The notes beneath the pieces were generated by a model. That model was not told where the DNA came from, did no database searches, and saw only the letters and a program-made list of their open reading frames with translations. Below are positions 45,983 to 53,276 of a DNA stretch of 53,276 nucleotides, piece by piece. Position 1 is the first letter of the stretch, and the number at the start of each line of letters is the position of its first letter. Origin of the DNA: a virus (lineage: Duplodnaviria; Caudoviricetes). The DNA lies in IMG/VR virus record IMGVR_UViG_3300041809_003414, positions 1 through 53,276 of that record, one strand, 5' to 3'. The position numbers and the translations under genes were made by a program.

Positions 45983-47002
45983 TTAGAAAACTGGCTCTGG
46001 GGTTTCGTTGGGCAGCACGCGCAATTCTTCGTTGGGCGGCACGCGCTGGAAGAAGTTATCGATCAAGTTGGGATTGCCGTTCGAACGGCACAACGCGAAA
46101 TAAGAGCAGGGCCGTTGGTAGTTGAAGCAGAAAGCGGTGTTCTGGTAGAACACGCCGCGGCGCCGCGCATCCAGGAACGCCTGCGTCAGCTCCCACAGCT
46201 CACTGCGCAAAATATCGAAGCGGTCCCGCGAGAGATAGAGCATTTCCCGGTGAAGCATCGTGGGTTCGGAATACTTTTCCGCCAGCCGCTGCTGAAACTC
46301 TTCATCCGTCTCCGGCATGCGGCGCTTCGCCGATGACTTGCCGGTTTTCGATTTTGCCAGCAGTTCGGCCCGGCGGGCCTGAAATTCCTCCTCGGTCTCG
46401 CCTTTGCTCTGCTGCAGCTTCGCCTTCACCAGGACGTTGTAGAGAATCCCGGTGATGGGGATCCCCATAGTCTGCTCGACATAGTGGGCATAGATGGTGA
46501 TCTGGAAATCCGTCCAAAGGCGTTCCAGGTAATCGGAATCCATTTGTCCGGCGGTTTTGTGTTCGAGGACGAAGTAATTCTCGCCAATGCAAGCGATGCC
46601 ATCCACCTTGCCGGCAAGCTGGAAGCTACGTGAAGCCGCGCCGGTGGCTGGATTGACGATCGGACCTTCGAATGTCTTCTCCAGGGCGACAATCTCGAAT
46701 TCCTCGGTTGCATATCGCGCGGCATAAGCTTTCATCATTGCCGCGGCGAGGTGCCAGTCCCGAAGTTGGTTCTCATCCTGGACCCGATTGGGACAAAGAC
46801 GGTCGATCAAGGCCAGTACTTCGCCGAGATCGCGGCGCTGGTGCCAGGTCTGCAGACACTCGTGGATGAGAGTGCCGAAATGCAGGTTCCGGTCGCGCTG
46901 GATGGGAACGAGTTGCTGGAGGTATCGCCACTCAACCGCCTTGCGGCAGTTGCGGAACAGCGACCACATCGAATAAGTGGAGACCATCGGCCCAGGACTC
47001 AT
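45983..47002 (-). CDS. PD-(D/E)XK exonuclease (RecB/Cas4-like, four Cys)
   Basis: FGTLIHE, GKVDG, EHKT, Q..IY; one N-terminal Cys and C-terminal CxxxxxxCxxxxxC. Confidence 0.88.
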   Translation of the reverse strand: MSPGPMVSTYSMWSLFRNCRKAVEWRYLQQLVPIQRDRNLHFGTLIHECLQTWHQRRDLGEVLALIDRLCPNRVQDENQLRDWHLAAAMMKAYAARYATEEFEIVALEKTFEGPIVNPATGAASRSFQLAGKVDGIACIGENYFVLEHKTAGQMDSDYLERLWTDFQITIYAHYVEQTMGIPITGILYNVLVKAKLQQSKGETEEEFQARRAELLAKSKTGKSSAKRRMPETDEEFQQRLAEKYSEPTMLHREMLYLSRDRFDILRSELWELTQAFLDARRRGVFYQNTAFCFNYQRPCSYFALCRSNGNPNLIDNFFQRVPPNEELRVLPNETPEPVF

Positions 47003-47574
47003 CTCGCGCCTTGCCATGTCGGCGCCAGGCCAGACGTACGAAACGCGGCGCGCAACTCCTCCCGGAACTGATAGGTCCTCCGGCTGGTGAGGCCCAGTTT
47101 CGTGCCCATTTTGGCGGCGATTTCGCCAAAATCCGTCGTACGGATCTCCTCCGCTAGAAGCTGTACGCGGGGGGCCACCGACGAGAGCACCTTTTCGACG
47201 TCGATCCTGGCCTGAACCGCTTCGGCAGTCGAACTCCGGGAGGCATCGTCTAGGCCGGCGGAAGCTTCAACCGGGCATTCGGTTTCGTCGTCATCCGTCA
47301 GAGAGGCGATTCTGCCCATTCCCGACCGGATGGCCTTCAGTGCCAGCGATGCCGCCCGGTTACGGATCAAACGGTTGATGAAAGTCTTGTAGGTGCCCCG
47401 TTCGCGCTTGAATCCGCTAATGCGCTTCCAGTACTCCAGGAAGAGCTGCTGCTCAAGGTCTTGGCGATCGTCTTCCCGGAACAACTGACATGCCACCAAT
47501 TCGTGGACCCGGCACCGAATGCTGTCGAGCGCGTATCGATCCATTTCCGATAAATCACTGCTTGCTGTCCTCAT
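46999..47574 (-). CDS. Phage-encoded sigma-70 family (ECF-like) factor
   Basis: Region 2 DRQDLEQQLFL...F...RG..KTFI.RLIRN and region 4 HTH (EIAAKMG...SRRT). Confidence 0.82.
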   Translation of the reverse strand: MRTASSDLSEMDRYALDSIRCRVHELVACQLFREDDRQDLEQQLFLEYWKRISGFKRERGTYKTFINRLIRNRAASLALKAIRSGMGRIASLTDDDETECPVEASAGLDDASRSSTAEAVQARIDVEKVLSSVAPRVQLLAEEIRTTDFGEIAAKMGTKLGLTSRRTYQFREELRAAFRTSGLAPTWQGAR

Positions 47575-47693
47575 GTTTCCTCCCTGCCGGGGAGGTCCTT
47601 GTGGGGGCCAACAAAAAAGCGGAGGTCGGCGGGCGCGTGCTTTTCACGCGACTCACAAGGACCTCCGCTTCGCGGTCAGTCGTTTATCTGGTG
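47575..47693 (-). promoter_or_regulatory. Structured RNA leader: terminator / antiterminator / SD-sequester switch
   Basis: AAGCGGAGGTC pairs with GACCTCCGCTT running into a T6 tract; alternative 13-bp pairing with CACAAGGACCTCC; CCTCCC/GGGAGG hairpin over the SD. Confidence 0.7.
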
Positions 47694-47713
47694 TGTCTCT
47701 GGCTGCAGCTACA

Positions 47714-48040
47714 TCATGTGCGCGACAGAGCCTCCAGCCGCATCCTGAAGGGGATGCCATGTTTCACTTCGAGGCGCCCGATGGTGCCGTCCCCGATGGT
47801 GGTCAGGGAGTTCAGCAACTCGGTGACCTGTGTTTTGGCGGCCAAGTCTTTCGACGCAGCCTCCGGCCGGGGATCGACCTCCCCTCCGAACTTGATTTCC
47901 CGCACCACGCGCGGCGCCGGATCGAATACCGGCTCGCCGCCACGGATCTCCAGCTCTTCAATCGAGCCGAAGTGAAGCTCCCGCATCAGGCGAAGCAGGC
48001 GCCGGCGCCCGTCCGAAAGCTCCGCGATCTGTGCCGGCAT
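47714..48040 (-). CDS. Small tandem-domain protein, candidate RNA-binding antiterminator
   Basis: Two related halves LMRELHFGSIEELEIRGGEP / LTTIGDGTIGRLEVKHGIP; GAGGAG SD; function inferred only from context. Confidence 0.65.
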   Translation of the reverse strand: MPAQIAELSDGRRRLLRLMRELHFGSIEELEIRGGEPVFDPAPRVVREIKFGGEVDPRPEAASKDLAAKTQVTELLNSLTTIGDGTIGRLEVKHGIPFRMRLEALSRT

Positions 48041-48042
48041 GA

Positions 48043-48258
48043 TTAACTCTCCTCCCTTCCGACAGCCTGCTCGGCCCGCATGAGTTTGCGTTCCGATTCA
48101 AGCGCCAACTGGACAGCGCGCGACTTCACCCGTCCGTTCTTTACCATCGAAACCAGAGCTTTGCTCTTACCGAGCCGCTTCGCCACCCTAGTAACCAACC
48201 CGAAGTAACGTGTGACCGGCCTTTTTATGATTTCTGTAATGCAATCTGAATTTTGCAT
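48043..48258 (-). CDS. Cro-like HTH protein
   Basis: VTRVAKRLGKSKALVSMVKNG HTH; first gene after a consensus promoter; start 48258 or 48291. Confidence 0.7.
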   Translation of the reverse strand: MQNSDCITEIIKRPVTRYFGLVTRVAKRLGKSKALVSMVKNGRVKSRAVQLALESERKLMRAEQAVGREES

Positions 48259-48316: not shown

Positions 48317-48344
48317 ATTATAAGCATTGCAGTCATGATGTCAA
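48317..48344 (-). promoter_or_regulatory. Sigma-70 consensus early promoter
   Basis: TTGACA-16 nt-TATAAT on the minus strand. Confidence 0.8.
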
Positions 48345-48365: not shown

Positions 48366-48758
48366 ATGCAAGTGATTGAACCAAAGATCAAAAATGTTGT
48401 CGTTCGAATTCCCGAAGATCTGCATCTGCCGCTTCGCAAAAAGATCGCCGAGATTGATACCTCTTTCCAGGAGGTAATTCTGGAGTCCCTGGTTGGCTGG
48501 CTGCACGCCAAAGATTCGACAGCGACCAAGAGGTGGCTTGCAAGAGTGGAGGAGACCGCCCGCAACGCCTGCCAGTTGCCGCCCGAGTTGACGCCCGAGA
48601 ACCGCGAGGAAAAGGAGTTTGTTGCTGGTCTGCTGGCGTTCCTTCGCGATCCCGAGCGACCCTTCCGGAAAGAGATGCAAAGGTTGCTGAAAAGCATGTT
48701 CGAGATCGATTCCAAGCGAGCCTTCCCGAATACGAAAAAAAGACGAAAAATCATTTGA
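48366..48758 (+). CDS. Putative repressor with N-terminal ribbon-helix-helix domain
   Basis: KNVVVRIPEDLHLPLRKKIAE..TSFQEVI RHH pattern; divergent from the Cro-like gene. Confidence 0.7.
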   Translation: MQVIEPKIKNVVVRIPEDLHLPLRKKIAEIDTSFQEVILESLVGWLHAKDSTATKRWLARVEETARNACQLPPELTPENREEKEFVAGLLAFLRDPERPFRKEMQRLLKSMFEIDSKRAFPNTKKRRKII

Positions 48759-51766: not shown

Positions 51767-51964
51767 CTAACTTACAGCACCATGAGGGCTCAATTCGGAC
51801 GCACTATCAAGTCCATCTCCGGTGTCCGGATGCGGCTCCGGCAGGGGAGTGACGCCGCCGGCATCTTGCAGGGTTCGGGCATTCCGCAGCCGCAAATATC
51901 CGGTAGCAAGAAGAGAAGCGATCTCGTCAATGACCGAGTCGGGCGGATCCTGTCGATACTCCAT
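51767..51964 (-). CDS. Small hypothetical protein preceding DUF2924
   Basis: EIASLLATGYLRL motif typical of this cassette; GGAG upstream. Confidence 0.5.
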   Translation of the reverse strand: MEYRQDPPDSVIDEIASLLATGYLRLRNARTLQDAGGVTPLPEPHPDTGDGLDSASELSPHGAVS

Positions 51965-51992
51965 TCCAATCTCCAATCGTGGAAGAACGGAA

Positions 51993-52162
51993 ACGGATTA
52001 TCGTTGGGGGAGCGGAGAGGAGGGAGGATTGGCGGCGCGGCTGCAGTGCGGGTTTACCTCTAACCGTCGCCTGGATTCCAGGCTCTCCGGCACCCACAAC
52101 GAAGTCCGCTTCGCGGTCGTCCAGTTGTCTGGTGGTCAGTGGAGCAGACTGTTAACTGCTCC
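51993..52162 (-). promoter_or_regulatory. Structured leader of integrase cassette with second copy of the RNA motif
   Basis: CACCAGA-N9-GACCGCGAAGCGGA shared with 47664..47693; 5' hairpin GGAGCAG/CTGCTCC; long-range pairing to 51993..52010. Confidence 0.65.
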
Positions 52163-52218: not shown

Positions 52219-52310
52219 TGAAAAGAGTTTCCTGTCCCCGCCGGGCCGCTTCCGTGTATTGAGATCGGAGGGAGATCAGAATTCTGCCGCGCTGTGCGGT
52301 GTCGAGTGAT

Positions 52311-53276
52311 ATGCTGAGCGGGTTGACGTTCGAATTCTACAGGTTCCGATTTCATTTCCGCTCCGCAGGAGCGCTGCATTTCCCTCCTTATAAATCCGGT
52401 AATATCGTGCGCGGCGCGTTCGGAGATCTATTTCGCAAAATCGTTTGCATGCCAAGCTGTCATGACGCCAAGACATGCGAGGTTCGCGCAACCTGCCCGT
52501 ACGCTCGCGTTTTTGAGCCGCAGGCGGCGCGGGGTGAAGGCCCAAGTGGGCTGGTGGACTGGCCGCGGCCGTTCGTGTTCCGCGCCGCTCACTTGGACGG
52601 GCGCACGATTCTGAATGGCGAAGCGTTCCACTTCGATGCCCATATCTTCGACGTGCGAGACCCGGCCCTGCCGTATTTCGTGCTTGCGTTTGCTCAATTA
52701 GCGCGGGACGGGCTAGGGCCGGGCAGAGGGCGCGCGGACCTCACCGCCGTGGATCAACTGGACCTGAATGGGGCAACTGCAGCGCGCGTTTTCAACGGCG
52801 AGCGCTTCCAAACGGCCAGTCTGTCAGGCCCCAGCGCCGTCGATCTCAGCGAGGCGACAGAGCACATAGGCAACATTAGAGTGCAATTCCTAACCCCGAC
52901 AGAACTGAAGAGCGGGCGCCAGGTGGCAGATCGTCCGGAATTCGGAATTCTGTTCGGTCGTTTGCGAGACCGAATCAGCGCGCTGCGGGCGCTATACGGC
53001 ACCGGACCTTTGGAGATCGACTTTCGCGCCCTGGGTGAGCGTGCGGCAAGGGTCCAGATGTTGCGGTGCGAGTTGAAGCGGATGGAAGTGGACCGGCGCT
53101 CTTCCAGGACGCAACAGCGCCATCCGCTGGGCGGCTTTGTGGGCGAGGCGGAGTACGAGGGAGATCTGGGTGAGTTCCTGCCCTATTTGTGGCTGGGACA
53201 GTGGGTGGGGGTCGGAAGGCAAACGGTCTGGGGTAAGGGGCATTTGGAGATCATCACGCCCATGGATGCGTCTTGA
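52311..53276 (+). CDS. cas6: CRISPR-associated endoribonuclease Cas6 (solitary in this window)
   Basis: VRGAFG, Cys cluster C...C..C...CPY..VFE, PRPFV, F.TP..L, GFVG...Y.G and C-terminal G-rich loop GVGRQTVWGKG. Confidence 0.9.
   Translation: MLSGLTFEFYRFRFHFRSAGALHFPPYKSGNIVRGAFGDLFRKIVCMPSCHDAKTCEVRATCPYARVFEPQAARGEGPSGLVDWPRPFVFRAAHLDGRTILNGEAFHFDAHIFDVRDPALPYFVLAFAQLARDGLGPGRGRADLTAVDQLDLNGATAARVFNGERFQTASLSGPSAVDLSEATEHIGNIRVQFLTPTELKSGRQVADRPEFGILFGRLRDRISALRALYGTGPLEIDFRALGERAARVQMLRCELKRMEVDRRSSRTQQRHPLGGFVGEAEYEGDLGEFLPYLWLGQWVGVGRQTVWGKGHLEIITPMDAS

Follow-up and report, generated by a model that had tools for sequence, protein, structure and literature searches.

A widespread phage leader RNA in which one segment has three mutually exclusive partners ahead of a sigma-like gene

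The decision circuits of temperate phages are known in detail for a few model phages only, and a short intergenic stretch ahead of a phage sigma-like gene raises the question of what a strongly self-complementary leader RNA might be deciding there. The window, by which we mean the whole 53,276-nucleotide stretch that was analysed, is an IMG/VR provirus record (IMGVR_UViG_3300041809_003414). On its minus strand, between the stop codon of a 108-aa ORF (47714–48040) and the ATG of a sigma-like ORF (46999–47574), lies a leader of about 125 nt (47697–47572), the core of which is the stretch first described (47693–47575). A preliminary description, made from the letters alone, had seen in this leader a switch of three states, with a terminator, an antiterminator and a sequestered ribosome-binding site, that couples transcriptional readthrough to translation of the sigma factor. 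What of this holds among homologous leaders, and how could such an RNA work? The answer that we favour, with somewhat better than even confidence, is that the leader is a conserved cis-acting RNA that gates the sigma-like gene together with the genes for recombination and replication that follow, and that it is OFF by default.

The genes around the leader give it a telling position. Reading along the minus strand, a TTGACA-16-TATAAT promoter (48344–48317; a consensus match only, with 12 of 12 positions) is followed by a 97-aa regulator-like ORF, the 108-aa ORF, the leader and the sigma-like gene, and, judging by its sequence, the unit probably transcribed from this promoter comprises the 97-aa gene, the 108-aa gene and the leader. 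Behind the sigma-like gene come genes for a PD-(D/E)XK exonuclease, a Sak4-like ATPase, a DUF669 SSB-like protein, an ERCC4 nuclease and a RecD-like helicase. Ahead of this promoter, a second minus-strand series consists of a further copy of the leader's 5' module, a 69-aa ORF (51767–51976), a DUF2924 gene, a serine integrase gene and a 136-aa gene, after which a divergent 130-aa ORF stands on the plus strand. By this gene order, the leader sits where lambdoid phages keep their early terminator/antitermination checkpoint. The regulated gene itself is sigma-like, of the ECF/sigma-24 type: its product matches PHROG 1740 (sigma factor; E 1.4e-7) and Pfam Sigma70_r2 (E 1.8e-4, below the family cut-off), and its homologues bear PF04542. 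The conserved 108-aa protein encoded directly upstream of the leader matches nothing in Pfam or PHROG, and its AF2 model (pLDDT 81.6) has no structural relative by Foldseek (best E 0.059) or VIA (best Z 3.9). The top rows for this model were OB folds resembling enterotoxin B subunits, with E values of at least 0.059 and a TM of about 0.3, which is not evidence of a relationship.

Every element of the leader that had been named at the outset was confirmed base for base on the minus strand. Towards its 5' end, the leader has a conserved single-stranded box, CACCAGAUAAA (47693–47683), with the family consensus CACCNGACAAC; its columns are at least 90% conserved in alignments A4, a sequence-only MAFFT alignment of 113 leaders in 107 distinct rows, and A5. 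The 3' end of the box serves as the 5' strand of helix C1, the outer helix of the 5' hairpin HP1 (47687–47655). C1 pairs 47687–47683 with 47659–47655, through four pairs and one mismatch in the window, and is followed inwards by an internal loop and by helix P0 (CCGC at 47675–47672, a GAA loop, GCGG at 47668–47665). This small CCGC-GAA-GCGG hairpin, present in the preliminary description as an element overlapping the terminator arm, is real; it is no weak accessory, but the invariant core of HP1 and the true upstream competitor of the terminator arm. The segment over which the competition runs is E1, AAGCGGAGGUCCUUGUGAG (47670–47652; in summary form GCGGAGGUCCUUGUG), which has invariant columns, holds an SD-like GGAGG and an invariant GUG.G, and has three mutually exclusive, conserved and covarying partners, namely the upstream strand (C1/P0, forming HP1), E2 and E3. 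HP1 takes up the GCGG and UUGU of E1 and so overlaps the 5' arm of the terminator, which provides an upstream alternative helix of the attenuator type.

The other two partners lie downstream. E2, the 3' arm GACCUCCGC(UU) (47627–47613), enters a T6 tract (47618–47613) directly, the U-tract feature of an intrinsic terminator; the arm AAGCGGAGGTC (47670–47660) is the perfect complement of GACCTCCGCTT (47627–47617), and the two enclose an inner hairpin, CGCGUG-AAAAG-CACGCG (47650–47634), with 47650–47645 paired to 47639–47634 and an inner helix that is 85.6% paired in A4. E3, CCCACAAGGACCUCC (47605–47591), lies beyond the U tract. Here, GGAGGTCCTTGTG (47666–47654) is the perfect 13-bp complement of CACAAGGACCTCC (47603–47591), or, in RNA form, GGAGGUCCUUGUG of CACAAGGACCUCC, and the duplex reaches 15 bp in the related locus L003. 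The 5' part of E3 pairs with GUG(G/A)G of E1 (helix B2), and its 3' part pairs either with GGAGG of E1 (helix B1) or with the SD of the sigma-like gene. This SD, GGGAGG (47584–47579), stands 4 nt ahead of the ATG at 47574 and pairs locally with CCTCCC (47595–47590) in an anti-SD:SD hairpin, CCUCCC-CGGCA-GGGAGG (47595–47579), with a local fold of −11.5 kcal/mol. We propose three states on this basis. In state C, E1 would pair with the upstream strand as HP1; in state A, it would pair with E2 in a long GC-rich hairpin, which the U6 behind it would here make an intrinsic terminator; and in state B, it would pair with the downstream E3, which is also the strand that would hide the sigma SD.

Which of these folds would prevail if the RNA were left to itself? 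RNAfold assigns −59.4 kcal/mol to the 161-nt leader, while its shuffles average −45.3 (z = −3.67; 1 of 200 shuffles as stable), and the longest perfect stem of the leader, 13 bp, is reached by none of 1000 dinucleotide shuffles, a stem of 11 bp by one in 1000. The predicted structure joins a compound hairpin, whose arms AAGCGGAGGUC and GACCUCCGCUU enclose the inner CGCGUG/CACGCG and which is followed by U6, to the CCUCCC/GGGAGG hairpin over the SD. The former (47675–47612; −34.9 kcal/mol, with a 12-bp basal stem) is a stable GC-rich hairpin, and together with U6 it makes the canonical intrinsic terminator that had been claimed. A simple terminator scan of the window made no call at the leader because it admits loops of 3–8 nt only and the hairpin here is compound. 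The minimum-energy fold of the window leader combines the terminator and the SD hairpin, and forcing the 13-bp alternative costs +8.5 kcal/mol in the 161-nt RNA and +6.3 kcal/mol in a 140-nt one. The same tendency runs through the family: 93 of 102 members have state A as their minimum-energy fold, with a median ΔΔG(B−A) of +7.2 kcal/mol and, for most members, a state B that is predicted to be the less stable of the two. The default fold is thus predicted to be the terminator with a hidden SD, i.e. OFF. Metatranscriptome contigs from wetland and peat, in four studies, cover the 108-aa gene; in two studies their ends fall at 47679 and 47675, shortly before the terminator hairpin on its 5' side, none covers 47450–47675, and one run has contigs within the sigma gene. 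These ends, from contigs that carry no strand or level information, possibly include DNA and stop about 60 nt short of the expected U-tract end, are a weak hint compatible with a transcript boundary at the leader.

How far does the leader reach beyond this provirus? Protein-pattern scans with the window sigma protein alone gave no relative in genome contigs or viral contigs, and relatives were found via an alignment-based metagenome scan and via the 108-aa protein. Close relatives of the sigma protein (70–98% identity) are present in metagenomes, and the leader was seen in three metagenome loci and in two more distant ones, an IMG/VR contig and an Acidobacteria MAG. In one more distant metagenome locus (L005), the inner hairpin is swapped for a GGCGCC/GGCGCC palindrome, and three changes in the downstream segment all still pair to E1 as G.U. 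A search with the 108-aa protein added 32 loci from many phyla, nearly all of which have the leader; the first set comprised 26 unique leaders from 32 loci. A degenerate DNA pattern then matched at least 120 IMG/VR contigs. Applied to genome contigs, this pattern matched 119 times; the gene ahead of the match is the 108-aa one in 84 cases, a sigma gene follows in 78 and both flank it in 75, and the leader occurs in about 87 genome contigs of many phyla. The 32 matches that have neither flanking gene are mostly chance-like, and the examples inspected (from Streptomyces, Halosimplex and Elioraea) are GC-rich sequence with no recognisable element; two loci matched by a two-arm DNA pattern (L009 and L010) were unrelated terminators and were dropped as chance. 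In the unique viral contexts, the leader follows a homologue of the 108-aa gene in 107 of 117 cases and precedes a sigma-like ORF in 108 of 108. All told, the leader stands ahead of a sigma-factor gene in hundreds of prophages. The host phyla include Acidobacteriota, Planctomycetota, Desulfobacterota, Nitrospirota and other little-studied phyla. Some cultured strains also have the leader (Desulfosarcina widdelii PP31, D. alkanivorans PL12 and Stieleria bergensis SV_7m_r), which makes experiments possible.

No Rfam 15 family matched anywhere in the window at the gathering score, and at E values of up to 10 both window copies of the module and a distant member (L049) gave chance-level matches only. 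A 2023 catalogue of structured RNAs from IMG/VR ('DNAVirus_X') likewise draws on intergenic regions of IMG/VR and describes RNAs of the same kind; its main text reports 8495 candidates that include terminators and upstream cis-regulatory motifs (PMC10690425). The word 'sigma' has 0 occurrences in that main text, to which the comparison is confined (PMC10690425); part of the leader may already stand in the supplement without a name or function.

The 5' module of the leader recurs within the same provirus. A second copy (52138–52047, minus strand) lies in the 5' UTR of the integrase operon, ahead of the 69-aa ORF, the DUF2924 gene and the serine integrase gene (domain matches to DUF2924 and recombinase), where C1 (CAAC:GUUG) and P0 (CCGC-GAA-GCGG) are followed by UGGGUGCC, a central hairpin and ACCCGCA. 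CM R1, a covariance model of HP1 with 56 positions whose training set contained both window copies, finds exactly two strong matches in the window, at the sigma leader (49.9 bits) and at 52138–52083 (53.9 bits), the next best scoring 11.8 bits. Second copies escaped a strict regular expression in every locus, but the covariance model detected untrained, diverged ones in 14 of 100 loci searched, each on the strand of the first copy and 2.4–6.8 kb from it, and with two later ones (L151 and L161) the total is at least 16 related loci. Across loci, the second copies precede an operon of a small ORF, DUF2924 and a serine recombinase. Their changes keep the pairing, with P0 turning into UCGC/GCGA or CGGC/GCCG and C1 into CAGC:GCUG; in alignment A7, to which the second copies were added and which was fitted to the structure of the model, HP1 is 95.5% paired and 7 of 9 pairs have changed on both sides. 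We folded 13 of these RNAs (ten second copies and three variants that have the 5' module only): the predicted structures place the module across part of a hairpin close to the SD and AUG, and most of the 13 have both the SD and the AUG paired within this hairpin. In the integrase-operon copies, HP1 shares its 3' strand with the base of a stable hairpin beside the ribosome site. On these models, formation of HP1 competes with the OFF structure at both the sigma and the integrase leaders.

A repeated module in two operon leaders also invites a different explanation. HP1 and the adjacent UGGGYG...CRCCCA stem could form a put- or nut-like site for processive antitermination in both operons, where the folded RNA, alone or with a phage protein, would ride on RNA polymerase and make it resist downstream terminators, the hiding of the SD being secondary. 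That each phage has two copies, in different operon leaders but on one strand, would suit such a site, as would the two adjacent stem-loops of the module and the terminator directly downstream in the window clade. There is also a precedent in phage HK022, whose putL and putR are described as two RNAs of about 70 nt with two stem-loops each, located downstream of early promoters and causing processive antitermination independently of protein, via the zinc-binding domain of the RNA polymerase β' subunit (PMC9378689). In the sigma leader, however, the second stem closes only after the terminator has been transcribed and therefore cannot protect against it. The position of the second stem at the SD and start codon in the 13 folded RNAs, in most of which it pairs both, points to translation control instead, and the P0 loop of 3 nt is unlike the boxB pentaloop. 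We consider a put- or nut-like site unlikely, though it is the best placed of the alternatives to the gating leader that we favour.

For the gating leader, one may ask whether the competing helices are all maintained. In A4, state A has 77.5% of its cells paired against 43–59% in slid controls, with 90.5% for the E1:E2 helix; state B has 85.3% against 35–55%; and HP1 has 95.2% against 21–71%. P0 keeps the family form CCRC-NNN-GYGG, with a middle pair that is GC in 61 leaders and AU in 45 and a 3-nt loop that reads GAA, AGA, AAA or others, and C1 keeps CAAC:GUUG. On a tree of the sigma proteins (FastTree), which may not share the history of the RNA, the minimum number of Watson-Crick switches is 8 for P0, 3 for C1, and 5, 3 and 4 for E1:E2. 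The cognate E1:E2 duplex is stronger than the mean non-cognate one in 92 of 107 leaders; the shuffle controls ignore relatedness. G.U pairs far outnumber A.C mismatches in E1:E2 (283 against 29), in B2 (53 against 6) and in the inner hairpin (96 against 26), which indicates RNA with the sequence of the minus strand, as against duplex DNA. The SD lies within a local hairpin in 103 of 106 members, and the best E1:E3 duplex uses at least three anti-SD bases in 81 of 103, which makes it mutually exclusive with the SD hairpin in silico; a locally paired SD with an alternative partner for its anti-SD strand is what an SD-sequestering riboregulator presents. Across the aligned leaders, all four helices exist, are conserved and change by compensatory substitution on the minus strand. 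The mutually exclusive folds proposed for this leader are conserved and covarying in more than 100 homologous leaders, and covariation, one of the checks that the preliminary description had set, appears in the A4 pair counts as well as in the tree switches.

Could the leader nevertheless be an ordinary terminator that ends the early 97-aa/108-aa unit, next to an unrelated hairpin that masks the SD, with E1:E3 an idle by-product of CCUCC strands? The prevalence of the terminator and SD hairpin as the minimum-energy fold agrees with this, and so does helix B1, which as GGAGG:CCUCC is matched by any anti-SD strand: its complementarity is partly forced by the SD itself, it aligns poorly and it is only 63% paired in MAFFT columns. 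Helix B2 (GUGGGYGN with N'CRCCCAC) is another matter. It lies outside the SD motif and is, at 94.5% paired in A4, the best-kept helix, with four pair types at one position (CG34/AU26/UA21/UG9) and UA68/CG28 at another; the tree requires at least 8 and 3 Watson-Crick switches for two B2 pairs; RNAalifold, run blind on A4, returned P0 and B2; and the cognate E1:E3 duplex exceeds the mean non-cognate one in 94 of 107 leaders. A plain terminator also cannot explain the conservation of the hairpin in members that have hardly any U tract: while 37 of 113 have at least five T in the 8 nt after E2, 31 of 113 have two or fewer. From these counts, termination is a feature of some clades, whereas SD sequestration is general. 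We give this explanation slightly less credit than the put- or nut-like site. As to the claim that readthrough is coupled to translation, linked control is a fair reading given the SD hairpin in nearly all members and the capture of the anti-SD strand by E1 in most; the part of the claim that concerns termination is limited to certain clades.

For the gating leader, these findings leave the question of what could set the switch. The 13-bp downstream partner had been cast as the antiterminator, and its position beyond the U tract rules this out: it is made after the termination decision and can only re-pair transcripts that have read through. HP1 alone can keep E1 off E2 before the U tract is made, from which we infer that HP1 is the antiterminator. 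The three-state switch is thus supported in part: E1 has three partners, with HP1 rather than the downstream 13-mer as the plausible antiterminator. During transcription, HP1 would be the first to fold. If nothing held it, E2 would displace it and polymerase would terminate at the U tract, and any readthrough RNA that leaked past would, without the factor, keep its SD hidden and be untranslatable, a double lock. If HP1 were held while E2 and the U tract were made, polymerase would read on; E3 would then zip onto E1, through B2 and then B1, the anti-SD strand would be stripped from the SD and the sigma factor could be translated. The ON state should rest on B1, as B2 alone seldom frees the SD: with only B2 forced, every base of the SD 4-mer was paired in 30 of 101 members, and in only 5 were all of them free. 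This dependence on a poorly aligned helix speaks against the gating leader, as does the lower predicted stability of state B.

HP1 is weak in the window, given its C1 with a mismatch and its P0 of 4 bp, so that a factor probably holds it, and the likeliest holder would be a trans-acting phage factor that recognises the conserved loops. The 108-aa protein, in whose model no RNA-binding fold was recognised, is a candidate for this factor, as its gene is linked to the leader. Because the same HP1 precedes the integrase operon and competes there with the SD/AUG hairpin, it is suggested that one factor switches both operons. A bolder version of this holds that HP1 is the RNA operator of an unrecognised phage system, in which a phage protein of novel fold binds it in two leaders and activates the integrase and sigma operons via antitermination and SD release. 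We put this forward tentatively, as clearly less probable than the gating function itself, with the linked 108-aa protein or a small protein encoded behind the integrase-type copy as candidates. If it were true, the RNA would serve a lysis-lysogeny or early-to-middle checkpoint common to temperate phages of more than ten phyla.

Other triggers were considered. A search for an attenuator sensor gave no leader-peptide signal and no T-box or riboswitch match in Rfam. A leader peptide starting from GGAGG-N5-GUG in E1 was rejected: its frame relative to the sigma gene varies among 0, 1 and 2, and it is open to the sigma start in 88 of 107 leaders against 83 and 66 in the other frames, which is no signal. 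Ribosome-coupled control from the upstream stop codon is unlikely, as that codon lies 28 nt from HP1 here but at very different distances in other leaders, and many members have an additional hairpin inserted. Some forced folds also paired GGCC of the upstream strand with GGCC in the loop of the SD hairpin, a contact that fails in the window clade.

HP1 and its junction could also be a riboswitch, binding a small molecule or ion that reports the state of the host and shifts the balance between states A and B. The strongly conserved unpaired bases (CACCNGAC, the ACCGG internal loop and the GAA-type loops) are what one might look for in such an RNA, as are alternative expression platforms at the levels of both transcription and translation, and for hosts from so diverse phyla a universal metabolite would be a convenient signal. 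However, no Rfam family matches, HP1 is small (9 pairs) and has no evident pocket-forming junction, and the tight linkage of the 108-aa gene (107 of 117 viral contexts) better suits a protein ligand; a riboswitch thus appears improbable to us. That the repeats act as DNA, as operator half-sites, a recombinase site or an origin element, is very improbable indeed: although inverted repeats occur near the immunity and integrase region, and the integrase and repressor-like genes lie between two direct copies of the 5' module, the excess of G.U over A.C is that expected of RNA, the helices take in the SD and start codon, and the long-range partners lie 50–100 nt apart with variable spacers.

Finally, we would like to place the leader among known regulatory RNAs. 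With lambda N/nut and HK022 put it shares a phage early region, two RNA copies in two operon leaders and a terminator immediately downstream. The lambda nut site has a boxB hairpin with a GNRA-like pentaloop and a boxA consensus. The leader has a 3-nt P0 loop and the upstream box CACCNGACAAC in place of boxB and boxA, and the linked 108-aa protein, unlike N, has no conserved Arg-rich motif, the stretch GRRRLLRL of the window protein not being conserved across 77 representatives. Of the N/nut-style checkpoint that had been proposed, the two copies per phage stand, while the 5-nt loop and the Arg-rich protein do not. Compared with put, there are two copies in two leaders here too, but the second stem of the sigma leader encloses the terminator; more generally, the leader's second stem closes around the terminator arm or around the SD and AUG, an arrangement that misfits an RNA that has to fold before the terminator.

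A second comparison concerns translation. In ermC-type leaders, 1:2/3:4 pairing alternates with 2:3 pairing, and in phage Mu, Com acts on the stem that inhibits mom translation. As in our leader, the SD in these systems is held in a local hairpin and is freed when the anti-SD strand is captured by another segment of the leader, and in the Mu case a phage factor acts on the upstream hairpin. Unlike in either, the capturing segment here is the 5' arm of the terminator itself, and capture consequently requires that the terminator does not form; unlike ermC-type leaders, this one has no conserved leader peptide.

A third likeness is to the 'RAT' type of BglG, SacY and LicT, protein-dependent antiterminator/terminator leaders. 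There, too, the terminator shares its 5' arm with an imperfect hairpin upstream, which contains internal loops and is by itself far weaker than the terminator, so that a bound factor would be needed against termination. There is no relation in sequence or protein family: no CAT/PRD protein is involved, and the linked 108-aa protein is without a known fold. Beyond the RAT type, the leader adds a third partner on the far side of the terminator that would control the SD, and its hairpin module is reused before a second operon. By analogy, it would act as a protein-dependent antiterminator/terminator leader does, with an SD-sequestering switch attached. It is a widespread phage leader RNA, absent from Rfam 15, that combines a three-way partner exchange with a reusable, operator-like 5' hairpin, and as such would gate a phage sigma factor and, via the shared module, an integrase operon. 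Its design, in which one segment has three conserved partners and one of these lies beyond the terminator, is unusual, and it offers a testable link between transcription and translation within a single leader.

The 5' hairpin module of the sigma-gene leader (helix C1 with the P0 hairpin) is present a second time in the window, on the minus strand at 52047-52138, where it forms part of the integrase operon's 5' UTR and is followed by a UGGGUGCC...ACCCGCA stem. A promoter-like TTCAAA...TATATAAC stretch (~52205-52165) sits just upstream of this copy, and the operon comprises a 69-aa ORF, a DUF2924 gene and a serine integrase. Folding of integrase-type copies from homologous loci (for example L062 32-110, L099 78-150, L104 1144-1215 and similar) places a hairpin of about -30 kcal/mol after the module. 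In most of the copies folded, this hairpin has the anti-SD paired with the SD and also takes in the AUG of a conserved 61-69-aa ORF with the pattern M..DDP...ERL.E.A.ILA.G.LRLR. On the far side of the integrase-operon leader, an ORF with a CRISPR Cas6 domain (52299-53276, plus strand; Pfam PF10040, E 2.6e-16) adjoins it and extends, incomplete, past the window end; the ORF belongs either to the host sequence that borders the provirus or to the phage itself.

Next to the sigma-gene leader, over window positions 47675-48209, wetland and peat metatranscriptome contigs from four studies cover the gene of the 108-aa protein, and in two of these studies the contigs end at 47679 and 47675, no more than 4 nt apart, at the 5' boundary of P0 and the terminator. 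In many members an additional hairpin of the GGGGGUCGGCUCCCC type separates the 108-aa stop codon from the leader, within the first ~30 nt past the stop in L026, L028, L033, L037, L039 and L040; the window clade is without it. Four loci (L015, L016, L018, L019) and L017, which is cut short, share the same leader letter for letter, and the MAGs of L015-L019 are classified as Blastocatellia, Myxococcota, Hydrogenedentota, Desulfomicrobiaceae and Acidimicrobiaceae, which points to phage contigs binned into the wrong genomes or to an element that spread very recently.

The 108-aa protein (47714-48040, minus strand) yields a confident AF2 model with a helix-3 strands-helix-2 strands topology, for which a comparison with the PDB returned no structural relative (best VIA Z 3.9). 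It represents a conserved phage protein family with no recognised fold. A perfect consensus sigma-70 promoter lies on the minus strand at 48317-48344 (12/12 consensus matches), and opposite it runs a divergent 130-aa ORF (48366-48758, plus strand), which found no match in a family search and recurs in syntenic position in two homologous loci (L008 and L011). This layout of promoter and divergent ORF resembles an immunity region with its repressor and cro-like genes.
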